Part shown: positions 1-10,205 of the stretch, in pieces
Numbering within the stretch: the stretch's first letter is position 1
Layout: each line of letters begins with the position of its first letter
Source of the DNA: a virus
Taxonomy: Duplodnaviria > Heunggongvirae > Uroviricota > Caudoviricetes
Length of the DNA stretch: 10,205 nucleotides
Direction: 5' to 3' (one strand)
Virus record (IMG/VR): IMGVR_UViG_2724679140_000003
Location: 1-10,205 of that record
Made by a program: the position numbers and the translations under genes
Notes under the pieces: generated by a model
What the model was told of the DNA's origin: nothing
Database searches by the model: none
Seen by the model: the letters and a program-made list of their open reading frames with translations, nothing else

Positions 1-345
1 GGCGGTGCGCATAGTCTCGTCACGATAGATGATCGGGGATTCAGTAACATTCACGCCGGAAGTGAACTCAAACAGGGTTCTGGCGTCGTTCTCGTACTGT
101 TTTCCCCAGGCCAGCGCCTTAGCGTTAACTTCCGGAGCCACACCGGTGCAAACCTCGGCAAGTAGGGTGTGGAAGTAGGACATTTTCATGTCAGGCCATT
201 TCTTTCCGGAGCGGGGTTTTGCTATCACGTTGTGAACTTCTGAAGCTGTGATGACGCCGAGCCGTAATTTGTGCCACGCATCATCCCCCTGCACGATAGC
301 TCTCACGTCGATCCCAGTACGCTGCAGGATAATGTTCGGTGTCAT
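1..345 (-). CDS. exo: Lambda-type exonuclease (Red alpha), N-terminal part; gene continues past the window edge
   Basis: Reverse-strand translation from ATG at 345..343 reads [115 protein letters not shown], which matches the lambda Exo N-terminus as I recall it. About 115 codons are present, open to position 1. The ATG overlaps the in-frame bet stop (ATGA) as in lambda. Confidence 0.9.
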
Positions 346-412
346 ATTGCCACCTTCTGCTCTGCGGCTTTCTGTTTCAGGAATCCAAGAGCTTTCACTG
401 CTTCGGCCTGTT

Positions 413-1126
413 TCAGTTCTGACAATGCATGAATGTCGCGGCGAAATATCTGGGAACAGAGCGGCAATAAGTCGTCATCCCATGTTTTATCCGGGCGATC
501 AGCAGAGTGTTAATCTCCTGCATGGTTTCATCGTTAACCGGAGTGATGTCGCGTTCCGGCTGATGTTCTGCAGTGCATGCGGTATTTTCGACAATGCGCT
601 CGGCTTCATCCTTGTCATAGATACCAGCAAATCCGAAGGCCAGACGGGCACACTGAATCATGGCTTTATGCCGTAACATCCGTTTGGGATGCGACTGCCA
701 TGGTCCGATGATTTCTTTGCCTTCTCGGGTTTTGAATGGTTCGCGACGGCACTCATCCATCCACTCGGTAACGCAGATCGGATGATTACGGTCCTTGCGG
801 TAAATCCGGCATGTACATGATTCATTGTCCTGCTCAAAGTCCATGCCATCAAACTGCTGGTTTTCATTTATGATGCGGGACCAGCCATCAACGCCCACCA
901 CCGGAACAATGCCGTTCTGCTTATCAGGGAAGGCGTAAATCTCTTTCGTCCACGGATTAAGTCCGTACTGGTTGGCGACGATCAGCAGCGCGATGAATTG
1001 CGCATCGCTGGCATTACCTTTAAATGCCGTCTGGCGAAGAGTGGCGATCAGTTCCTGCGGGTCGACAGAATCCATGCCGACGCGTTCAGCCAGCTTCCCG
1101 GCCAGTGTTGCAAGTGCTGTACTCAT
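413..1126 (-). CDS. bet: Red beta (Bet) single-strand annealing protein, C-terminus altered by an apparent 1-bp deletion (likely pseudogene or truncated variant)
   Basis: The 237-aa ORF starts [26 protein letters not shown] and tracks recalled lambda Bet almost residue for residue up to [12 protein letters not shown], then reads [26 protein letters not shown] and stops. The other frame from about 503 down to 342 still encodes a Bet-like tail ([20 protein letters not shown]...[11 protein letters not shown]) ending in TGA that overlaps the exo ATG. Start ATG at 1126..1124 is preceded by GAGG. Confidence 0.85.
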
Positions 1127-1131
1127 TCGTT

Positions 1132-1431
1132 TTATACCTCTGAATCAATATCAACCTGGTGATGAGCAATGGTTTCAACCATGTACCGGATGTGCTCCGC
1201 CACGCGTTCTTGAAATTCAACATCGTCATCAAATGCGCGACTGATTGCCTGTTTGCTGGCACCGTGGCGTTGCAAATGGTCGATGCAGAGCGATTCAAAC
1301 AGGTGCTGGGGCAGACCTTTTTCCAGGTCGTCCGCCAGCTCCGTTTCTTTTTCTTCGCGAACGATTTGCTGGTAGTGGCGTGACCATGCCTGCTCTTCAA
1401 TGCGATCAAAAATTGGGCATGTACTCATCAT
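1132..1431 (-). CDS. gam: Gam-like RecBCD inhibitor (short GamS-type form, 99 aa)
   Basis: Translation [99 protein letters not shown] matches recalled lambda Gam closely from the GamS start onward. Sits directly upstream of bet on the same strand. GGGG-rich SD before the ATG. Confidence 0.9.
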
Positions 1432-3379
1432 CCGTCACCCCAAAATTTTCAAGTTTGTTTGCAATCATCATTGCAATACCCGGAATTAATGGCGCTGAGG
1501 CTATACCCGCAGGATTTGCACATAAACCGTAAACCGCTGCAATCACCACTTGTCTTTTCCAGTCGAGTTTTTCTAATGATGAAGCTGCTGCTTCGCCAGT
1601 TTCATCACTGCAATCGCGATGCGGATCGCTGCCATCGTTCTCCTTGTGCGGATGTTCAGCACCTTCCATTTCCTCCAGACCTTTTTCCTGATATTCATTC
1701 TGATTTTCTTCATTAAAGGTTTTCTGATACGTTGCGTCGCCCATCACCGCACCACAGTCAGGGCAGTTATCCCCGCCAGTCTGACCGCAGGCATTGCAGA
1801 CTATTTCCGGTTCCTGTTGCACTACTGGCTCAGGTTGTTTCGCATCCGGGCTGATTTTTTCCGTTTCTGGCTGGTTCTGGTACACAGAATCGCGAGTCTG
1901 GATCCCCTTAACCCATTTCGGATCGTTCGGGTCGCTAATTCCGTCAACAAATTCACCACGTGATGCAGCAAGCAATTTATCGGCATCGACAGGATTTTTT
2001 GATGGAATGTTTTTCCGGGCTTCATGGAGTTCTGCCCGCTTTTTCTGGTATTCCGCTTCAACAGGGTTTACCTGTGACTGAGCATCCAGCGGCTGCGTGT
2101 TCTGATGATGTTCAGCTGCATCCGGTTCCACTGTTTCAGCCGTTGCCTGTTCATGTGCCATTGCGCCAGATGGTTGCGGTTTTTCTTCATCATCCTGTTT
2201 TTCTTCTTCTGTTACACGCTGCGGCATCGGGGCAGAGGAGCGACCGCAGGCAATATCCACGATTTCCGGATCAGGGTTGGCATGATCGGTTTCAGTCAGT
2301 ACTTTGTTCAGATATTCAGTGACGTGCGCGGGGATGACCTCGATCCCAATTGGTGCTTCTTTTACGGACGCAACCACGATGGCGCGGGAATAATCCAGCC
2401 CGCCAGGCATGGTGATGAATTTGTCGCGGAAAACAGAAAAGGGCGGTTTATTTTCAGCGATAATTTCCTCAATGCGTTTAGCGTGTGCCGGATGAAGGTT
2501 ATAGATGTCCACGTCCATTGAACGGGCCAGTACGCCAGTGGCTACATCGCGCGCCAGTGACGTCAGATCGTGGACGAAACCTTTGCCGCGATCGGTGAGG
2601 TTCCCGCCGCCAGCATTAGCACCGGAAGCCGTGCGGGTGATACGTGAAACACGATTTCCTTTCATCCACTCTTTTGTCAGCAGACCGCGATCGGTGTAGT
2701 CAGTGCCCAGGTATGCTTCGAAAAAAGCAGTCATCAGCCCCAGGCTTGAATTGCCTGGATTAGGGAAAACTCTGTCAGTATCACGCACCAGTTTGTGGAG
2801 ATCGCGAATTTCCAGCGGATCGAGCAGGCTGGTTTTGTGGGAAACAGCCAGGGCAGTAACAGCTGGTAGTTCTTCAGCTCGTGCAATGTGTAATGCCTGG
2901 AGTTCGTCGCGTGAAACGTGCGTTACCGGTTTTTCGCTGCCGTGTTGAGCAAGCCAGCGAATGGGCAGCTCCTGACCGGAAATCGGGAGTAGCATATTCT
3001 CCTCAATCTCCGTCATGTCTTCGCCATTAACATTGGTATTGTCAGTGCTGGCTGGTTTGTCCTGCGCAGAGGATGAGGGCGCGATAAATACCATTGTGAT
3101 GCCATCTTCCCCGCCTTTTTCGTAACGGTTGCAGAATTCCGTATCAAATACGCCTTCTGGTGGAAGGTCATCAACAACGGGCAAATTGACGCGAACAGGT
3201 TTTTTAAAGTCATCTTCATCGTAGCCAGCATCGTCAATCGCAACAGCACCACGGGAGATGGCAATGGATAATTTTTTCGCTTCAGCCCAGTAGAAACCGC
3301 CTTTAATACCGAGACGTTTTCTTACTTTGTCATTTTTTGCTTCGTAATACAGTGAGTAAACTTGTTTATCGGTGCTCAT
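1406..3379 (-). CDS. Large hypothetical protein (657 aa): acidic low-complexity segments, CxxC-x7-CxxC zinc knuckle, hydrophobic C-terminal segment; function unknown
   Basis: Uninterrupted 1974-nt ORF. ATG at 3379..3377 preceded by TGAGG about 9 nt upstream. Zinc knuckle [16 protein letters not shown] at about residues 528-543. Hydrophobic stretch [30 protein letters not shown] near the C-terminus. The 3' end overlaps the gam start by 26 nt. No Walker A or other catalytic motif recognised by eye. Plus-strand ORFs across this span are antisense and spurious. Confidence 0.85.
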
Positions 3380-3447
3380 TGTTTTTTAACCTCAACTCAG
3401 ATTAAAATTAATGCGAGTGATGAATAAATGTCCCAGGTTCTTCACTC

Positions 3448-3479
3448 AGGCCTGCACAGTGTGCAGGCTTTCTTTTTTT
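3448..3479 (+). terminator. Intrinsic-terminator-like hairpin oriented for plus-strand transcription
   Basis: Perfect 8-bp stem GCCTGCAC / GTGCAGGC (3450-3457 / 3461-3468) with 3-nt loop AGT, followed on the plus strand by TTTCTTTTTTT. On the minus strand the hairpin is preceded by an A-tract and followed by non-U sequence, so it is not a canonical terminator for the surrounding minus-strand genes. Confidence 0.45.
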
Positions 3480-3754
3480 CAGATTTCACCTTTTAATTTC
3501 ATTGCAATCAGAGTTGCCAGAAATTCGGCTTTTTTTTCTGCGGGCAGATTCTTTCCTATGTGCACCAGACACATTTTTTTAACACCATCGTTAAGTGTTT
3601 TAACGTTGCCTGATGGACCGTCGATATCAACCACAGTGAATGGGGTTTCTTTATTTTCTGTTTTAATCACATAGCCAATACGCTTTCCTTCCAGATTAAC
3701 CTCATGAACAATGTCATCAGTAGTAACAACAGTGGCTTCATAACTGGTAATCAT
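3479..3754 (-). CDS. Small hypothetical protein (91 aa)
   Basis: ATG at 3754..3752 is preceded by a strong SD (TAAGGAGAAAAAC then ATG). Translation MITSYEATVVTTDDIVHEVNLEGKRIGYVIKTENKETPFTVVDIDGPSGNVKTLNDGVKKMCLVHIGKNLPAEKKAEFLATLIAMKLKGEI. The ORF-track start at 3802 has no SD. No family recognised. Confidence 0.75.
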   Translation of the reverse strand: MITSYEATVVTTDDIVHEVNLEGKRIGYVIKTENKETPFTVVDIDGPSGNVKTLNDGVKKMCLVHIGKNLPAEKKAEFLATLIAMKLKGEI

Positions 3755-3828
3755 GTTTTTCTCCTTAATTAAGGTTGAGAGAATCCCTGCCATTGCTGGC
3801 ATAAATTCAGTTTCGAATAGTCAGTTAA

Positions 3829-4110
3829 TTAAAGTTCGTGTGCCATCTGGTCTTTTTCGGCACATTGCTTACAGCAGTATTTATGCTCCTTACGTGCAAT
3901 AAGGGAACCGTGCATATAAATAATTTCAGCAGTAAAGGCTTTTTCAGGTTCAATTTGTTTATTACAGAGCGTATATGCACAGGGAATTAAATCCGGGTCC
4001 CCCTTTTGCTGGAGGATTTTTCTGATTCTCCACAGCCATTTTTTAATTCCGGTGTGACTGATGGTCTGCCTGGAGGCAGGCGTAAAACAATAATCAAGCA
4101 TGGGGTTCAT
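3829..4110 (-). CDS. Small cysteine-rich hypothetical protein (about 93 aa), possible zinc-binding
   Basis: ORF MDMNPMLDYCFTP...KYCCKQCAEKDQMAHEL with seven Cys. The GGAG SD at 4122..4119 is too close to the first ATG (4116) but well spaced (8 nt) from the second ATG at 4110, so 4110 is the preferred start. The SD overlaps the stop of the upstream Rha-like gene. Confidence 0.7.
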   Translation of the reverse strand: MNPMLDYCFTPASRQTISHTGIKKWLWRIRKILQQKGDPDLIPCAYTLCNKQIEPEKAFTAEIIYMHGSLIARKEHKYCCKQCAEKDQMAHEL

Positions 4111-4126
4111 ATCCATAGCTCCATTT

Positions 4127-4681
4127 TTATTTTAAGGAAAGCAACTGCTCTACGGTCATATTTTTAATTGCGCTCCGGTTTACAAGAGTCCAGCCTTGTT
4201 TCTTCAGATAAAACTGGAAGGTATCCAGGGTGCAGACCATTGCGCCGTCAGGAACGGTTTCAGTGAATTTGATATTGCCGTGTTCGTCGAGACGGATAAC
4301 CAGGGTGCGTCCGTCCCCGTGAATCATTTTGTCGGGAGACGGGGCGTTATTCTGGCGCAGTTCTGCTTCCATGCGGTCGAACTCAGCAATGTATGCCTCT
4401 TTAAATGCAGCGGCTTTTTTGCCAGTGAAGCCCATCACCAGGAAAACGAAGCCGTTTTTGGTGATTTGGTACATGGGGCGTTTTTCGCCTTTGGCGTCGG
4501 TGTAGGTAACGGGCGTAAAATTGCGCTCGTTAAAATCTTCAGAGCATTCTAGCGTTTCAATTTTGCGCAGAACGTCCTTGTGCATTTTGCGGAAGAACTC
4601 TGCAACCGCAACAGACGTAGTGACAGCGCGACCATTTTCGATGGTTACGTCAGGGTGAGAAAGGGTAGGGATAGTAGCCAT
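4127..4681 (-). CDS. Rha-family phage regulatory protein (184 aa short form; an in-frame upstream start at 4978 would give 283 aa)
   Basis: N-terminal motif RAVTTSVAVAEFFRKMHKDVLRKIE resembles the conserved core of the phage Rha domain (recalled pattern ...VAE.FGKRHDNVLRDI). ATG at 4681..4679 has SD AAGAGG about 8 nt upstream and puts the motif at the usual N-terminal position. The longer in-frame ORF from 4978 contains an intrinsic terminator, so the short form is preferred. Confidence 0.75.
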   Translation of the reverse strand: MATIPTLSHPDVTIENGRAVTTSVAVAEFFRKMHKDVLRKIETLECSEDFNERNFTPVTYTDAKGEKRPMYQITKNGFVFLVMGFTGKKAAAFKEAYIAEFDRMEAELRQNNAPSPDKMIHGDGRTLVIRLDEHGNIKFTETVPDGAMVCTLDTFQFYLKKQGWTLVNRSAIKNMTVEQLLSLK

Positions 4682-4847
4682 AATGGCAGCCTCTTGGTTA
4701 AGTATTAATAACTCACCACCAAGGTTTTCCACGACCATAAGGGTGGTGAGACGTACAGGGGTGGAAATACCGGTCAACCAAGAATCCGGCCAGCCTTGCA
4801 GCTGCCCTGCACGCCCCACCATAATCTGAATGTGGCTGTGCTTGACG

Positions 4848-4873
4848 CATAAAAAAACCGCCTGAGCGCGGTT
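4848..4873 (-). terminator. Intrinsic terminator (minus strand)
   Basis: Minus-strand RNA reads AACCGC-GCUCAG-GCGGUU followed by UUUUUAUG: a 6-bp stem, 6-nt loop and 7-U tract counting the stem Us. Lies between the DicF-like element and the Rha-like gene start. Confidence 0.5.
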
Positions 4874-5146
4874 ATGCGCTTGATTGAATTCCGGGTTTCC
4901 ACGCCCGGCACCCGTTTTATGAGGTGCAGGTGCACTATAATTCCACCCGTTCTGGTTTTCAATAGCTACATTCAACATTTTCTCTACCTTTCATCACCGA
5001 AGTGAACTTTGTTGATGCGGTGCCTGGTGCCTCCAGGTGACGTTAACCAGTTAACAATTAACGCCGGATAATCCACCCATAACACTGATGCTTTTAACTG
5101 TTCCGCGTGCGCTTAGCCGCATTCACCGCATCACAAAATTCACTTT

Positions 5147-5215
5147 AAAAAGGGCGGACATCAGCCGAACTTCAAGAAAAAAACTGATGCCGCCAAGACT
5201 ACACACAGCAGTGTT
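5147..5215 (-). ncRNA. DicF-like small RNA with terminator hairpin (5' end uncertain)
   Basis: Minus strand reads ...CUGCUGUGUGUAGUCUUGGCGGCAUCAGUUUUUUUCUUGAAGUUCGGCUGAUGUCCGCCCUUUUU. Long hairpin GGCGGCAUCAG / CUGAUGUCCGCC (plus-strand 5153..5194) followed by a U-tract. The segment UUGGCGG(C)AUCAGUUUU and the CCGCCC-UUUUU 3' end match E. coli DicF as I recall it. Position after the repressor and tiny ORFs mirrors the Qin dicA-ydfABC-dicF layout. Confidence 0.45.
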
Positions 5216-5392
5216 GTTATTCACAACCGGAGGCGCACTCCCACCATTTAAATTTAACAGACAAGACCGACTCTTTATGGATACCGGAAATGCGCCTTCG
5301 TGTTGTGCCCGGTTTTATTTCACCACCTCCGGGCTTTGGTGGCCTCGGCTATACCCCTACAGCAAGAATATTGAATTAATCCAATAAATGGT

Positions 5393-5545
5393 TTAGCTGG
5401 TATTTTTGGCAAGCCAGCGACGTGCGCCAGCTTCGGTTTTAAACGATTTGCTTTTGGTATACGTCATGGCGGTGAACGTTCCATCCTGGTTGGGGAACAC
5501 GCCACACACCAGGGATTCGTTGTTGCCGAGGTCGATTTTTTGCAT
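5393..5545 (-). CDS. Small hypothetical protein (50 aa), YdaF/YdfA-like position in the operon
   Basis: ATG at 5545..5543 preceded by SD GAGGG. Translation MQKIDLGNNESLVCGVFPNQDGTFTAMTYTKSKSFKTEAGARRWLAKNTS. Length and position resemble the tiny genes following racR or dicA in Rac and Qin; sequence identity not verified. The ORF-track version (87 aa from 5656) runs through the upstream gene in another frame. Confidence 0.6.
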   Translation of the reverse strand: MQKIDLGNNESLVCGVFPNQDGTFTAMTYTKSKSFKTEAGARRWLAKNTS

Positions 5546-5556
5546 TTTGGGAACCC

Positions 5557-5691
5557 TCACATCTTGTTGTTGCGGATAGAGGCTTCTGCCTGCCAGAGAT
5601 CCCAGTCGTTGCTGCGTAGAGCCTGTACAGCTTGGCTGTAAGTGATGCCGCAACAATCCATCAAATACTGAACTACTTCGTAATGCACCAT
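5557..5691 (-). CDS. Small hypothetical protein (44 aa), YdaG/YdfB-like position; not in the supplied ORF track
   Basis: ATG at 5691..5689 preceded by strong SD (AAAGGGAGAGAUAAA then AUG). Translation MVHYEVVQYLMDCCGITYSQAVQALRSNDWDLWQAEASIRNNKM. Stop TGA at 5559..5557 overlaps the SD of the next gene, suggesting translational coupling. Confidence 0.6.
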   Translation of the reverse strand: MVHYEVVQYLMDCCGITYSQAVQALRSNDWDLWQAEASIRNNKM

Positions 5692-5757
5692 TTTATCTCT
5701 CCCTTTAACGCCGGGTGGCGGAACTAAAACCTACAGCGCCGTGCTGTTCTTGATAGA

Positions 5758-5786
5758 ATATTAGTAACACGGATATTTTAAGTCAA
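5758..5786 (-). promoter_or_regulatory. Candidate sigma70 promoter for the leftward early operon
   Basis: Minus strand: -35 TTGACT (5786..5781), 17-nt spacer, -10 TAATAT (5763..5758). Lies downstream of the repressor terminator and about 65 nt upstream of the 44-aa gene. Confidence 0.45.
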
Positions 5787-5883
5787 CAGTATGGCGTATG
5801 ATATTTTTGATTTAGTAACTATGTAAATGTTTTTTCAAGGGAAAAATATTAGTTATACAGCTGATTTTCAGAAGTTATGGCAC

Positions 5884-5913
5884 AAAAAAACCGACTAAGA
5901 CGTCGGTTTTTTG
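5884..5913. terminator. Bidirectional intrinsic terminator downstream of the repressor gene
   Basis: AAAAAAA-CCGAC-UAAGAC-GUCGG-UUUUUUG: stem AACCGAC / GTCGGTT (5889-5895 / 5902-5908), 6-nt loop, A7 tract upstream and T6 tract downstream. About 25 nt past the repressor stop on the minus strand. Confidence 0.6.
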
Positions 5914-5938
5914 TTGTGGATGGGGTAGTGAGTGGTGG

Positions 5939-6400
5939 CTACTGGTTACGTTTCTTTAGTGCCAGCATGTTCTCGAAGGCTTCCTCGTAGAGCTTGTTTA
6001 GTCCACGTAGCTGGTTAAGGAGTTTGGCTTTTTCTGACGCAGGTAGAATCTCGAAGAGGTTAAGTAACTCAGCCTGTTCTTCATTGACCAGCCTCCATCC
6101 TTTGCCTGAAAAGCTATCATCATAAGTATCTGATGATCTTACATAATTCATTAAGTCTTTAAGGTCTTCTCGAATGTCCTCTGGTTTTACCTTTAACAGA
6201 GCCGCAAATTTTAGCGCAGCGTCGGTATTTACCGGTATCTTGCCGTTCAGATACTGGCTAACGGTGCCTTGAGATTCGAATCCCAACAACTCAGCCGCCA
6301 GCTCTTGAGTCAGCTTCAGCTCTTTTTTTCTTGCATTCCATGCGGCTTTTAAATTCTTGCTCGCTTCTGGAGTTGCAATCACTTCGCGTGTTTTTTTCAT
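5939..6400 (-). CDS. DicA/RacR-type prophage repressor (XRE-family HTH, 153 aa, no S24 peptidase domain)
   Basis: HTH segment LTQELAAELLGFESQGTVSQYLNGKIPVNTDAALKFAALLKV. C-terminal segment EEQAELLNLFEILPASEKAKLLNQLRGLNKLYEEAFENMLALKKRN resembles the recalled DicA C-terminus. Divergent from a Cro-like gene. Weak or absent SD. Confidence 0.85.
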   Translation of the reverse strand: MKKTREVIATPEASKNLKAAWNARKKELKLTQELAAELLGFESQGTVSQYLNGKIPVNTDAALKFAALLKVKPEDIREDLKDLMNYVRSSDTYDDSFSGKGWRLVNEEQAELLNLFEILPASEKAKLLNQLRGLNKLYEEAFENMLALKKRNQ

Positions 6401-6448
6401 ACATAGAGTTTATTTGTTTTACCAATATTATCAAAGATAGTCTGACTG

Positions 6449-6477
6449 TTGATCTTTAAAATTAGTGGGGCTAATAT
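6449..6477 (+). promoter_or_regulatory. Candidate rightward early promoter within the divergent repressor/cro intergenic region
   Basis: -35 TTGATC (6449-6454), 17-nt spacer, -10 TAATAT (6472-6477), about 30 nt upstream of the cro-like start. Imperfect inverted repeat TCAAAGAT (6431-6438) / ATCTTTAA (6452-6459) overlaps the -35 and may be an operator. Confidence 0.5.
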
Positions 6478-6507
6478 TTGCTCGAGGCATAACGTAGAAG
6501 GTTGGCT

Positions 6508-6783
6508 ATGAACTTAAGAGACTATTTAAAAGAGAAACATATCACCCAGTTACAGTTTGGGAAGCTAACGGGTTTATCTCAGGTGCATGTAAGTCGAGTG
6601 CTGGGGGGCTATGAAAGATTCAGCCCTGAAAAAGCATTACGTGTTGCTGAAGTAACGAATTTCGAGGTTACACCTCATGAACTCCGGCCTGATATCTACC
6701 CGAATCCGACCGATGGTTTACCTGTTGGATGTAAGGCTAACACACAAAATGCACAGGAGTTGATTCATGAAAATCAGGCATGA
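6508..6783 (+). CDS. Cro-like regulator, YdaS/DicC family (91 aa from ATG; the ORF track uses TTG at 6502)
   Basis: ATG at 6508 preceded by GAAGG 7 nt upstream. Translation MNLRDYLKEKHITQLQFGKLTGLSQVHVSRVLGGYERFSPEKALRVAEVTNFEVTPHELRPDIYP... has an HTH and the C-terminal pattern typical of YdaS-family proteins. Divergent from the repressor. Confidence 0.85.
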   Translation: MNLRDYLKEKHITQLQFGKLTGLSQVHVSRVLGGYERFSPEKALRVAEVTNFEVTPHELRPDIYPNPTDGLPVGCKANTQNAQELIHENQA

Positions 6784-7189
6784 GCACATCGAATCAGTGT
6801 TGTTAGCCCTAGCCGCTGAAAAAGGGCAGGCGTGGGTCGCTAACGCAATTACTGAAGAATATCTCCGCCAGGGGGGAGGTGAATTGTCTCTGACACCAGG
6901 CAAGGACTGGAACAATCAGCAGAACATCTATCGCCGTTGGTTAAAAGGTGAAACGGAAGCGCAAAGGGAAAAAATTCAGAAGCTGATCCCAGCAATTCTG
7001 GCAATCCTTCCGCGGGAGCTGCGTCACCGACTCTGCATCTTCGATACCCTGGAACGCCGTGCATTACTGGCGGCGCAGGAGGCGTTGAGTACGGCAATTG
7101 ATGCGCATGATGATGCAGTCCAGGCCGTTTACCGGAAAGCGCATTTCAGCGGCGGCGGGTCTTCCGACGATTCTGTCATTGTTCATTAA
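6767..7189 (+). CDS. YdaT-like protein (140 aa), proposed CII-like regulator in Rac-type prophages
   Basis: Starts MKIRHEHIESVLLALAAEKG..., resembling the recalled N-terminus of Rac YdaT (MKIKHEHI...). AGGAG SD 7 nt upstream. Overlaps the cro-like gene by 17 nt. Confidence 0.8.
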   Translation: MKIRHEHIESVLLALAAEKGQAWVANAITEEYLRQGGGELSLTPGKDWNNQQNIYRRWLKGETEAQREKIQKLIPAILAILPRELRHRLCIFDTLERRALLAAQEALSTAIDAHDDAVQAVYRKAHFSGGGSSDDSVIVH

Positions 7190-7252
7190 GCAAAAGTTTC
7201 CATGCTGTTTGTGCTTATTCTAAGCCACCGGGCAGCATCATACGGGGCAATT

Positions 7253-8059
7253 ATGGCCGCATTACCATACATGCAACTGTACATAGCTGATTACCTGGCT
7301 GACACCATGCATTTGTCAGCAGAGGAGCATGGTGCGTATTTGTTGCTGATGTTCAATTACTGGCAAACAGGAAAGCCAATACCTAAAAACAGGCTGGCAA
7401 AAATTGCCCGTCTGACTAACGAGCGATGGGCTGATGTTGAACCATCCTTGCAGGAGTTTTTTTGCGATAACGGCGAGGAATGGGTGCATCTTCGGATTGA
7501 GGAAGATCTGGCATCAGTCAGGGAAAAATTAACCAAAAAATCAGCCGCAGGAAAAGCATCTGTTCAGGCCAGAAGAAGCAGAAAGGAAGCTGATGTTCAA
7601 ACAAAACAAGAGAGAAATTTAACAGGTGTTCAAACAGATGTTGAAGTGGTGTTTGAACATGATGTCAACACAAAGGCAACTAATAAAGATACAGATAAAG
7701 ATCTAAAAACAGATCCCCCCCTAAATCCCCCCCGGGGGAATCGAGGTGTCAAAAAGTTTGACCCTCTGGATATTGTTTTGCCGAACTGGATTTCTGTCTC
7801 GCTTTGGCGTGAGTGGGTTGAATTTCGCCAGGCATTGCGAAAACCGATTCGAACGGAGCAGGGCGCTAACGGGGCGATACGGGAACTGGAAAAATTCCGT
7901 CAGCAGGGTTTTACACCTGAGCAGGTGATTCGACACAGCATCGCCAATGAATACCAGGGCCTGTTCGCGCCGAAAGGTGTTCGGCCTGAGACGTTGCTCC
8001 GACAGGTTAACACCGTCTCGTTGCCGGACAGTGCGATCCCGCCTGGCTTCAGGGGGTAA
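7253..8059 (+). CDS. DUF1376 (YdaU-like) replication initiation protein, O-like (269 aa; alternative in-frame start at 7202)
   Basis: N-terminal MAALPYMQLYIADYLADTMHLSAEEHGAYLLLMFNYWQTGKPIP matches the conserved DUF1376 signature (YM.LYI.DYL.DT..LS.EEHGAYL.L). Followed immediately by a DnaC-like gene. ATG at 7253 has GGGG upstream. Confidence 0.85.
   Translation: MAALPYMQLYIADYLADTMHLSAEEHGAYLLLMFNYWQTGKPIPKNRLAKIARLTNERWADVEPSLQEFFCDNGEEWVHLRIEEDLASVREKLTKKSAAGKASVQARRSRKEADVQTKQERNLTGVQTDVEVVFEHDVNTKATNKDTDKDLKTDPPLNPPRGNRGVKKFDPLDIVLPNWISVSLWREWVEFRQALRKPIRTEQGANGAIRELEKFRQQGFTPEQVIRHSIANEYQGLFAPKGVRPETLLRQVNTVSLPDSAIPPGFRG
7556..7672. repeat. Iteron-like repeats inside the DUF1376 gene followed by an AT-rich stretch: candidate replication origin
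   Basis: Repeats of about 10 bp related to TGTTCAAACA at roughly 34-35 bp spacing: cTGTTCAggc (7560), gaTGTTCAAACA (7592), ggTGTTCAAACA (7626), inverted TGTTTGAACA (7651), gaTGTCAACA (7661), plus ggTGTCAAAAA further on at 7747. AT-rich 7672-7712 follows. Confidence 0.4.
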
Positions 8060-8065
8060 CAGACC

Positions 8066-8812
8066 ATGAAAAATATTGCGACAGGAGGCGTTCTGGAGCG
8101 TATCCGCAGACTGACCCCACCACATGTAACCGCCCCATTCAGAACGGTTGCGGAGTGGCGCGAGTGGCAACTTGCTGAAGGCCAGAAACGTAGTGAGGAG
8201 ATCAACCGCCTGAATCGCCAGTTGCGGGTGGAAAAAATTCTGAATCGCTCAGGCATCCAGCCGTTGCACCGTAAATGCTCGTTTGCGAATTACCAGGTGC
8301 AGAACGACGGCCAGCGATACGCGTTAAGCCAGGCGAAATCCATCGCCGATGAACTGATGACCGGGTGTACAAATTTTGCGTTCAGCGGAAAACCTGGTAC
8401 CGGGAAGAATCACTTAGCGGCAGCTATCGGGAATCGCCTGCTGAAAGACGGTCAGACAGTGATTGTGGTTACCGTGGCTGATGTTATGAGTGCTCTACAC
8501 GCCAGCTATGACGACGGGCAATCAGGCGAAAAATTTTTGCGGGAACTGTGCCAAGTGGATCTGCTGGTTCTTGATGAAATTGGCATTCAGCGCGAGACAA
8601 AAAACGAGCAGGTGGTGCTGCACCAGATTGTTGATCGCCGGACAGCGTCGATGTGCAGCGTGGGGATGCTGACAAACCTGAACTATGAGGCCATGAAAAC
8701 ATTGCTCGGCGAGAGGATTATAGATCGCATGACCATGAACGGCGGGCGATGGGTGAATTTTAATTGGGAGAGCTGGCGTCCGAATGTCGTCCAGCCAGGA
8801 ATTGCGAAGTGA
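8066..8812 (+). CDS. DnaC-like helicase loader / IstB-like AAA+ ATPase (YdaV-like replication protein, 248 aa)
   Basis: Walker [16 protein letters not shown] and Walker B LLVLDEIG. Recognisable DnaC-family layout. ATG at 8066 with GGGGG SD. Directly downstream of the O-like gene. Confidence 0.9.
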
Positions 8813-8834
8813 TTTTTACCGGGAGGAAATTTTA

Positions 8835-8984
8835 ATGGAAACCGTTTTTGATGCACTGAAAGCAATGGGAAAAGCCACGTCGGTAGAACTGGCTGCGCGA
8901 CTTGATATCAGTCGTGAAGAAGTGCTGAACGAGCTGTGGGAACTGAAAAAGGCTGGATTCGTTGATAAAAGCGCGTACACCTGA
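8835..8984 (+). CDS. Small winged-helix-like protein (49 aa)
   Basis: Strong SD GGGAGG 8 nt before ATG at 8835. Translation [49 protein letters not shown] looks like an HTH. Ends with TGA at 8982-8984, in frame with the next ORF. Confidence 0.6.
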
Positions 8985-8987
8985 CGT

Positions 8988-9596
8988 GTGGCCGATAACA
9001 ACGTTCAGCAGGAACATCCAGTGCCGGAAGAACAGCCGGAAGAAATCGCCACGGCAACAGTAGCGAAAATCTCAGAGTGCGATTTAACCGCGACGATTGA
9101 ACAACGCGGACCACAAACGGCGGATGAACTGGCTACGCTGTTCGGTACCACATCCCGCAAAGTTGCTTCAACGCTGGCAATGGCAATCAGCAAAGGACGC
9201 CTGATTCGCGTAAATCAGAACGGTAAATTTCGTTACTGCATGCCGGGCGGTAATTTACCAGCAGAGCCGAAAGCTGCATCGGTAGCGGAAACTGATGGTA
9301 AAGCCTTTCCTCAGCCTGCATGTGTTGTTTTACCAGTACAGGAGGCTGCAATACAGGAAGAAATTAAAACAGAAACTGTGGCGGACATTGTGCAGCCGCT
9401 GCCATCGTTCACTGAAACGCGAGCAGATGACCTGGTTTTACCATCGCTGCATATGGCAAACCGCGAACTGCGTCGGGCGAAAAGTCATGTCCAGAAGTGG
9501 GAGCGAGTCTGCGCCGCGCTGCGTGAGCTGAACAAGCACCAGGATATTGTCCGTCAGATTGTCGATTCCTCCAGTCGTATTGTGTCGGAAAAGTGA
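8988..9596 (+). CDS. Hypothetical protein (202 aa) with a second HTH-like segment; GTG start, or a readthrough extension of the preceding ORF
   Basis: Long ORF in the same frame as 8835..8984. First codon GTG at 8988 with no convincing SD. Contains [32 protein letters not shown], which resembles the HTH of the upstream 49-aa ORF. Confidence 0.7.
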
Positions 9597-9612
9597 TTCT
9601 AGGGGAGGGCTT

Positions 9613-10035
9613 ATGGCAAAAGTATTAACACAGGAAGAGCGAGAAAAAATTAAAGGGCAGATTGTTGATCTCGTACGCCAGAGCGAGCGAGAGACGTTAC
9701 GACAACTGGAAGCTAAAACAGGCGCGACAAGATATCTGATGAGTGTTCTCGCCAGAGAGCTTGTTGCCAGTGGCGATGTATATAACTCCGGCTACGGGTT
9801 ATTCCCGCCAGAACAGGCTCGTAAGGACTGGCAAAATGCCCGCAAAAAACTATCCAGGGCAAAGGTGAAGAAACCATCTGTGGTTGATCCTGACCTTATC
9901 TGGTCATTACCAGACGGAGAAATACGCCACTACGACAGGCGTCAGAACATAATCTGTAGCGAGTGCCGGAAGAGCGAAGTTATGCAGCGCGTGCTGGCGT
10001 TTTATCAGGGGAATTTTCAGGAGGTGGCACAGTGA
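9613..10035 (+). CDS. Hypothetical protein (140 aa from ATG 9613; the ORF track extends it to 9547)
   Basis: Strong SD GGGGAGGG immediately upstream of ATG 9613. Translation MAKVLTQEEREKIKGQIVDLVRQSERETLRQLEAKTGATRYLMSVLARELVASGDV... No family recognised. Confidence 0.7.
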   Translation: MAKVLTQEEREKIKGQIVDLVRQSERETLRQLEAKTGATRYLMSVLARELVASGDVYNSGYGLFPPEQARKDWQNARKKLSRAKVKKPSVVDPDLIWSLPDGEIRHYDRRQNIICSECRKSEVMQRVLAFYQGNFQEVAQ

Positions 10036-10205
10036 GCGGGATTGACTACCAGGATTTGGCTGCTGCCAACGCTTTCCTGGCGGATGTGCGGGCAGGGGCG
10101 TTTAACGACCTTTGCGCGGCGTTTGTCAGGCACGAAAAAATTGCAGGACTGGGTGATGGCGACACTGTGACGCTTAAGGAAGCGACTGATGCGCTGCTGC
10201 ACTGT
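10032..10205 (+). CDS. Hypothetical protein, 5' part only (runs off window)
   Basis: GTG at 10032 overlaps the preceding stop (GTGA). Open frame to the window end reading MSGIDYQDLAAANAFLADVRAGAFNDLCAAFVRHEKIAGLGDGDTVTLKEATDALLHC. No SD assessed; short and partial. Confidence 0.35.
   Translation, partial: MSGIDYQDLAAANAFLADVRAGAFNDLCAAFVRHEKIAGLGDGDTVTLKEATDALLHC

Follow-up and report, generated by a model that had tools for sequence, protein, structure and literature searches.

Three small genes lie close together in the left part of a phage genome, just upstream of a large open reading frame (ORF): are they a dedicated accessory cassette or separate parts that share an operon? The question is raised by the 10,205-nucleotide (nt) stretch IMGVR_UViG_2724679140_000003 (positions 1 to 10,205 of that IMG/VR record, Caudoviricetes; hereafter the window, i.e., the whole stretch analyzed). 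A first-pass annotation, made from the letters alone, described a Rha-like gene, a Cys-rich 93-amino acid (aa) gene and a 91-aa gene upstream of a 657-aa ORF, grouped them as a compact cassette, and recognized nothing in the latter two. Here, we report that the three genes are already-named parts of a Rac-type prophage: a Rha regulator probably controlled by small RNAs (sRNAs), a variant of the zinc-finger protein YdaE, and the anti-retron protein RacC. The best joint explanation, to which we give a probability of roughly 0.7, is that this region lies in the early-left operon of a Rac-type prophage, is under repressor control, and consists of three separately inherited modules.

Identity and inheritance of the three genes

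All three ORFs are present on the minus strand at the positions described before. The Rha-like gene runs from ATG 4681 to the TAA at 4129-4127 (4127..4681; 184 aa), the Cys-rich gene from ATG 4110 to the TAA at 3831-3829 (93 aa), and the 91-aa gene from ATG 3754 to the TGA at 3481-3479 (3479..3754). The first was rightly called Rha-like (Pfam PF09669, 108.8 bits against a cutoff of 29.9; TIGR02681, 108.2 bits against 45.95; phrog_995 also matches). The other two do have relatives: the Cys-rich protein belongs to the YdaE family (NF041288, 83.5 bits against 35) and the 91-aa protein is RacC (NF007306, 204.2 bits against 171; phrog_4778 family). The first-pass annotation had itself named clear matches to lambdoid proteins such as KilR or YdaE as evidence that would speak against its reading, and such matches were found. 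Tight packing, with Shine-Dalgarno (SD) sequence and stop codon overlapping, describes the junction between Rha and the Cys-rich gene, where the gap is 16 nt, and does not describe the next two spacers of 74 nt and 99 nt. The SD of the Cys-rich gene, GGAG (4122-4119), lies 8 nt before ATG 4110 and 4 nt past the Rha stop, and an alternative ATG at 4116 is merely 2 nt from it. The 91-aa gene has, as noted earlier, the best SD of the three (AAGGAG, 3766-3761, 6 nt before its ATG).

The window is near-identical to Escherichia coli IGC_EcoliInv_1.1 (NZ_CP054665.1), with a 1-nt deletion and one mismatch across 10.2 kb, and the region is a Rac-type prophage inserted in ttcA. RefSeq names racC a 'hypothetical protein', the Cys-rich gene a 'YdaE family protein', the Rha gene a 283-aa 'Rha family phage regulatory protein' and the 657-aa ORF a 'RecE family exodeoxyribonuclease'. 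In line with the first description, the three are accessory genes that sit between a DicF-like region and the recombination genes in the early-left operon. K-12 Rac (kilS-kilR-ydaE-racC-recE-recT) has the attachment site ttcA and the gene order in common with the window prophage, and its proteins are 96.7% (RacC, b1351), 54% (YdaE domain) and 84% (RecE N-terminal region) identical to those of the window. K-12 Rac, however, has kilR and sieB, in the place of which the window has isrK-C4-Rha and a YdaE fused to a module named X here; DNA homology to K-12 is absent from window 3883-4999. K-12 Rac also has the RecE nuclease domain and RecT, whereas the window prophage has lambda-type gam-bet-exo instead. 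A PADLOC search with four proteins, i.e., the three gene products and that of the large ORF, gave zero matches.

Prevalence was counted in 5,426 complete E. coli genomes. racC is found in 1,771 of them, the isrK-C4-Rha block in 878 (near full length in 393) and the long-ydaE segment in 16, and at least 80% of window 3380-5300 is present in 35. Among 59 usable Rha-anchored loci from IMG/VR, the long YdaE is present in about 6, and 23 lack every partner gene; what follows Rha in these loci varies between recE directly, kilR, kilR-ydaE-racC, long ydaE, or none of them. The three genes travel independently and are not the co-occurring unit first proposed. In K-12, ydaF, ydaG, kilR, ydaE and racC are co-induced 40-70-fold on loss of RacR repression (PMC6765115); such genes, therefore, share a transcript and not a function.

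A probable sRNA-controlled leader upstream of Rha

Directly upstream of Rha there are RNA genes that the first-pass annotation missed. An Rfam search gave four matches on the same strand as Rha, namely C4, IsrK and two weaker ones (DicF-like and STnc100-like). On the minus strand, a sigma-70-like promoter, TTGAAA-17-TATAGT (4934..4962), has its predicted transcription start at 4927, the 5' end of an IsrK-family sRNA (4851..4927; RF01394, 69.2 bits against a gathering score of 50); it aligns with the isrK promoter of Gifsy-1 and is the least variable part of the leader. IsrK ends in an intrinsic terminator composed of a stem (4856-4873) and a T-run, and beyond it lies a C4-family antisense RNA (4739..4826, minus strand; RF01695, 76.7 bits against a gathering score of 45). 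Loop 2 of C4, 12 nt long and hypervariable (4774-4785, minus strand), has a target b2, AACCAAGAGG (4690-4699, minus strand), which overlaps the Rha SD AAGAGG at 4690-4695. A second site with which loop 2 co-varies, b1, UCAAUCAAG (4879-4887, minus strand), lies within IsrK.

We compared the leader across 55 unique relatives from IMG/VR loci and found that three short hypervariable patches change jointly: C4 loop 2, b2 at the Rha SD, and b1 in IsrK. There are 12 loop types, every one matching its own b2 and b1 targets, with mean duplex energies of -14.1 kcal/mol for loop and own b2 against -6.1 kcal/mol for non-own pairs, and of -9.5 against -3.4 kcal/mol for b1. In the consensus fold of C4, compensatory changes are seen at 11 of the 27 pairs, and the stem flanking the variable loop is invariant. 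All 11 relatives without a BLAST-detectable C4 have a C4-family RNA by Rfam: eight score 71-78 bits with C4 and have isrK, and three match the sRNA-Xcc1 model. In these three (L041, L079 and L091), the C4 position is held by an RNA scoring 67 bits with RF02221, with no isrK match: a different type of leader in front of the same Rha gene.

The pairing of loop 2 with b2 and b1 is well supported computationally, since the loop types co-vary with their targets and the C4 fold is conserved. As to how it would work, the promoter is expected to make IsrK, with the terminator stopping most transcripts, and read-through RNA would contain C4 as well as the Rha mRNA. Loop 2 of C4 would then pair with b2 on the Rha SD and keep Rha untranslated, and b1 of IsrK, presenting a decoy to the same loop, could relieve the block. 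Both translational repression by C4 and its relief by IsrK are proposed here after experiments on P1 and Gifsy-1. In Gifsy-1, read-through transcripts are translationally silent, and IsrK supplied in trans turns on orf45 and, through orf45, the antirepressor AnrP, which induces the Gifsy-1 prophage (Hershko-Shalev et al. 2016, PMC4825925).

The Gifsy-1 isrK-orf45(STnc1160)-anrP leader is colinear with that of the window: both have the -35/-10 elements, a 77-nt IsrK with terminator, a spacer of ~25 nt, a C4-like RNA with a conserved AUG in its 5' end, ~55 nt, an SD and an ATG. The cargo differs, being an ORF6N-domain protein in Gifsy-1 and a Rha-domain protein in the window, and so does the location, the Gifsy-1 module lying downstream of Q and that of the window in the early-left operon. 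The other known system of this kind, immI of P1/P7 (c4-icd-ant1/2), has as annotated the same order as the window, i.e., a1, b1, C4, a2 and b2 at the ribosome-binding site of the gene that follows, with specificity likewise set by the loop sequence. The P1 annotation has C4 block icd/ant translation through pairing with a2/b2. Unlike P1/P7, the window has no icd gene, and a terminator stands past a1/b1, so that an IsrK sRNA is made; the cargo is also unrelated to P1 Ant, which has an ANT/KilAC domain.

The two weaker Rfam matches adjoin each other upstream of IsrK on the minus strand (5152-5207 / 5008-5140 region). The DicF-like match scores 42.6 bits, under its gathering score of 48, and sits in a stretch 90% identical to the 5' untranslated region of K-12 kilR, overlapping the annotated sRNA KilS (b4833); the STnc100-like match scores 42 bits.

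Possible role of Rha

The proposed role of Rha is the weakest step of the model. Rha would most likely act as an antirepressor or regulator of a short, non-cleavable repressor: the prophage repressor at 5939-6400 is a 153-aa protein with HTH_3 only and no self-cleavage domain, and in Gifsy and Qin short repressors of this type, with only a helix-turn-helix (HTH), are controlled through antirepressors (PMC10448788). The C-terminal domain of Rha occurs in PHROGs annotated as anti-repressors, and PHROG relatives of both its domains are so annotated. Taken together with the analogy to the two known leaders, we would put an antirepressor function of Rha at slightly less than an even chance.

Some results weigh against this reading of the leader and its cargo. 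No clear co-variation was seen between loop 1 and the a1/a2 sites, and the match to the c4-a1b1 model of Rfam stays under its threshold (25.5 against 46.7). Rha has no similarity to P1 Ant and is not homologous to it; with AnrP there is a weak C-terminal match (E = 0.004), and the two are not homologous either. The antirepressor role rests on position and analogy because Rha is not homologous to these proven cargoes.

Alternatively, Rha may be a transcription factor that binds DNA, or an effector of growth inhibition or exclusion that C4 silences (compare Icd/KilA of P1). Henthorn and Friedman are said to have described in 1995 a rha phenotype of phi80/P22 in hosts deficient in integration host factor. 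The family is annotated merely as 'phage regulatory protein', the module occupies the position of kilR and sieB in K-12 Rac, and, as said, the cargo is unrelated to Ant and AnrP. This alternative, the chief competitor of an antirepressor role, is nevertheless unlikely, though not strongly so, given that both experimentally studied C4/IsrK leaders control antirepressors, that the PHROG relatives are annotated as they are, and that the repressor is without a self-cleavage domain.

The Cys-rich protein as an X-YdaE fusion

The Cys-rich protein has six cysteines, one fewer than first counted. The last 52 of its residues are a YdaE domain (zinc-finger domain, 3829..3987, minus strand; E = 2e-16 to K-12 YdaE), in which C44, C49, C79 and C83 are the predicted ligands and are invariant in relatives. 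The cluster read before as CC-x2-C is in reality C79-x3-C83, since C80 is Cys or Ser among relatives. The suggestion that the protein may bind zinc is plausible, and probably right, because it is a YdaE-family member: zinc binding is annotated for K-12 YdaE, and PMC6892955 cites Blindauer et al. 2002 for this property.

The N-terminal 41 residues (3988..4110, minus strand) are a different module, a basic amphipathic helix ending in QKGDPD, which is homologous to free-standing ~38-aa phage proteins of phrog_22279; this is the module we name X. A typical YdaE would be a stand-alone protein of ~52-56 aa, translationally coupled to an upstream kil-type gene, whereas the protein in the window is 93 aa long, fused to X and without kilR. 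Such long ydaE genes are rare (10 protein clusters, and the 16 E. coli genomes counted above) and stand beside Rha in all 12 cases listed. Compared with the Rha-kilR-ydaE-racC arrangement, DNA homology breaks at 4139 and resumes at 3865, and because of these breakpoints we regard the long ydaE as an alternative cassette for kilR plus a short ydaE.

Related loci show what the two halves are. Gifsy-1 encodes X (STM2630.1n) and a YdaE homologue (STM2630, phrog_1520) as adjacent genes with an 8-nt overlap, upstream of a recE-like gene, whereas the window has one 93-aa polypeptide that matches both back to back. In Atlantibacter/Phytobacter (L258, L259 and L260, about 2776-3160), YdaE is fused to KilR in a 124-aa protein (phrog_294 plus phrog_1520), the N-terminal part of which is 38% identical to K-12 KilR (E = 9e-15). 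The partner is thus KilR there and X in the window, with the same logic of an upstream partner. Citrobacter has a lambda-Kil-like gene in the slot that X takes in Enterobacter.

These two independent fusions with the upstream gene, KilR-YdaE and X-YdaE, argue that YdaE may act in physical association with the product of the small gene that precedes its own. X-YdaE would in that case fill the kilR plus ydaE slot of Rac, with YdaE as a one-zinc finger working with an upstream-encoded partner, and, at low confidence, it would act on the host much as Kil does. The idea that X itself inhibits host division in the manner of Kil is only a hypothesis, because its sequence shows no significant similarity to that of lambda Kil or KilR. 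One could go further and take YdaE as the obligatory zinc-finger partner of KilR, lambda-Kil-like proteins or X, X-YdaE as the single-chain form of an as yet unrecognized two-component inhibitor of cell division, and X as a third, unrelated 'Kil' type; we consider this extended proposal speculative and rather unlikely. Counting against the Kil-like reading of X-YdaE, comparison of the X module with lambda Kil (PF06301) and KilR (phrog_294) gave no significant similarity, leaving positional equivalence only, and the AlphaFold model of the fusion is unusable (predicted local distance difference test score, pLDDT, 45). A sequence search of the PDB with the YdaE profile returned nothing significant.

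A different view is that the Cys-rich protein is a zinc-buffering, metallothionein-like 'chaperone' with no link to Kil, its N-terminal extension being neutral. K-12 YdaE does match an SmtA-type metallothionein model weakly (5e-4), and PMC6892955 lists it among putative Zn chaperones. We find this improbable, however, as there are just four conserved cysteines, fitting one structural zinc site, as the gene is invariably placed after KilR, a lambda-Kil-like gene or X, and as it has been fused twice, independently, to its upstream partner.

Where Rha translation starts

RefSeq starts its 283-aa Rha at ATG 4978, so that the coding sequence would span the promoter, IsrK, the terminator and C4. The long upstream frame indeed stays open in most relatives, for ~100 codons in 49 of the 55 unique ones, which is a point against our shorter gene model. 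Please note that the open-frame test is ambiguous for this call, and the codon-position test was therefore used. In the 297-nt extension, variable sites fall on the three codon positions as 44/44/45, i.e., with no coding signature, against 31/28/72 in the N-domain of Rha and 24/14/46 in its C-domain, and many indels in the extension are not multiples of three. The 283-aa reading from 4978 is probably too long. The extension (window 4682-4978) is matched by Pfam Phage_ASH at 6.7e-14 and also by the first ~100 positions of phrog_995; since the extension is without coding signature, the Phage_ASH match is probably a translation of the RNA leader, and these families may have been built, in this part, on non-coding RNA.

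Could the RefSeq model nevertheless be right, with an N-terminal 'Ash' domain in a 283-aa Rha and incidental Rfam matches? The open frame and the Phage_ASH and phrog_995 profiles speak for it, and yet it is very unlikely: beside the codon-position pattern and the indels, the extension holds a promoter and an intrinsic terminator and matches two Rfam models strongly, the intermolecular co-variation is explained by RNA pairing only, and in Gifsy-1 the frame is closed one codon upstream of the orf45 AUG and IsrK has been experimentally shown to be an sRNA.

The shorter gene model leaves space for a second start. The conserved AUG in the C4 5' end (4820..4822, minus strand) is by alignment the counterpart of the first AUG of Gifsy-1 orf45. 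It shares the reading frame of Rha and lies 47 codons upstream in the window and 46 or 47 codons upstream in 52 of the 55 unique relatives. Its frame contains 0 stops, where the two alternative frames have 136 and 116, and shuffling introduces a stop in 82% of intervals. Ribosomes probably read from AUG 4822 into Rha, and a 231-aa isoform from this AUG beside the SD-driven 184-aa Rha is possible, a predicted pair that Ant1/Ant2 of P1 resemble. The arrangement differs from that of Gifsy-1, where orf45 ends in an AUGA overlap with the anrP start; in the window the upstream frame continues into Rha and is no ORF of its own.

RacC beside a RecE remnant

In a TIC/TAC screen, no protein blocked the retron-Sen2 toxin RcaT more strongly than K-12 RacC, which also blocked RcaT-Eco9 (Bobonis et al., bioRxiv 10.1101/2020.06.22.160242). 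These retrons are triggered when RecE degrades their msDNA (multicopy single-stranded DNA), for which reason the same authors called racC-recE a linked blocker-trigger pair. By transfer from the K-12 protein, racC of the window would encode a counter-defense protein that blocks RcaT and is genetically linked to recE. In all 71 RacC-anchored loci kilR-ydaE precedes racC, and in 69 of them the RecE N-terminal region follows directly downstream, a co-occurrence that agrees with the published pairing.

The 657-aa ORF (1406..3379, minus strand) is such a RecE N-terminal region: it covers positions 1-600 of 877 of the NF007259 model, aligns with K-12 RecE residues 40-587 and has no nuclease domain. 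As RecE is here without this domain, the published trigger for the target of RacC may be absent, which counts against this part of our model. RecE_N is followed by lambda-type gam (1132-1431) and bet, and this RecE_N-to-Gam-to-Bet mosaic recurs in several IMG/VR loci. In bet (341-1126), a 1-nt deletion at about 492 relative to NZ_CP054665.1 causes a frameshift; Bet is intact with 261 aa in RefSeq and has 237 aa and an altered C-terminus in the window.

Nearly all members of the RacC family come from Escherichia and Shigella; relatives occur in Citrobacter (54% identity) and on one metagenomic contig. A profile hidden Markov model search of 1.84 billion representatives gave only 19 matches: RacC variants or fragments, a distant relative of 91 aa, and three repeat proteins that are spurious matches. 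The predicted fold (five strands and two helices, pLDDT 78) has no informative structural neighbor, and a 95-aa gene at the RacC position in Enterobacter is not significantly RacC-like (E = 0.06). The genes at this position in Gifsy-1 (STM2631, L240 41969-42319) and in Enterobacter (L257 3243-3530) belong to phrog_2434, which is not the PHROG of RacC; the phrog_2434 gene carries a RacC-like motif, 'TENGETT..V.DGG', and may be a positional analogue of RacC. On its coding strand, racC has two homopolymer runs, A8 and A7 (window 3530-3537 and 3574-3580). Many RacC clusters in the database are frameshift variants between or after these runs, some of them regaining the frame at the second, and the runs may be slippage-prone or phase-variable. 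Between racC and recE (window 3448-3470) there is a perfect 10-bp hairpin, kept in K-12 and with no U-tract on the mRNA strand; because its T-run is on the plus strand only, we read it as a terminator facing against the operon.

The remaining possibility, that the three genes and the large ORF are one dedicated cassette, e.g., for host killing or exclusion, that moves and acts together, can be set aside as the least probable of all: the genes are adjacent, on the same strand and probably co-transcribed, and their exact arrangement recurs in a few genomes, but the prevalences are very unequal, few Rha loci have the long YdaE and many have no partner at all, RacC goes with kilR-ydaE-recE instead, and the breakpoints at 4139 and 3865 show cassette exchange.

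Implications

As a lead to a new accessory system, the region is mostly cleared as false, because all three genes fall in named families, one of them with a published function; it is an ordinary mosaic of known modules. Three refinements are worth keeping, i.e., the over-extended Rha annotation, the co-varying C4 specificity types and the fusion evidence that ties YdaE to Kil-type partners. The gene models of RefSeq, PHROG and Pfam (Phage_ASH) read straight through an IsrK/C4 riboregulator, and do so in hundreds of E. coli prophages. RacC has been kept next to a RecE without nuclease domain, perhaps no longer a retron trigger. The KilR-YdaE and X-YdaE fusions are the first concrete, testable clue to the role of the zinc protein YdaE. 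For the prophages themselves, the at least 12 co-varying C4 specificity types would insulate antirepressor control between co-resident prophages.

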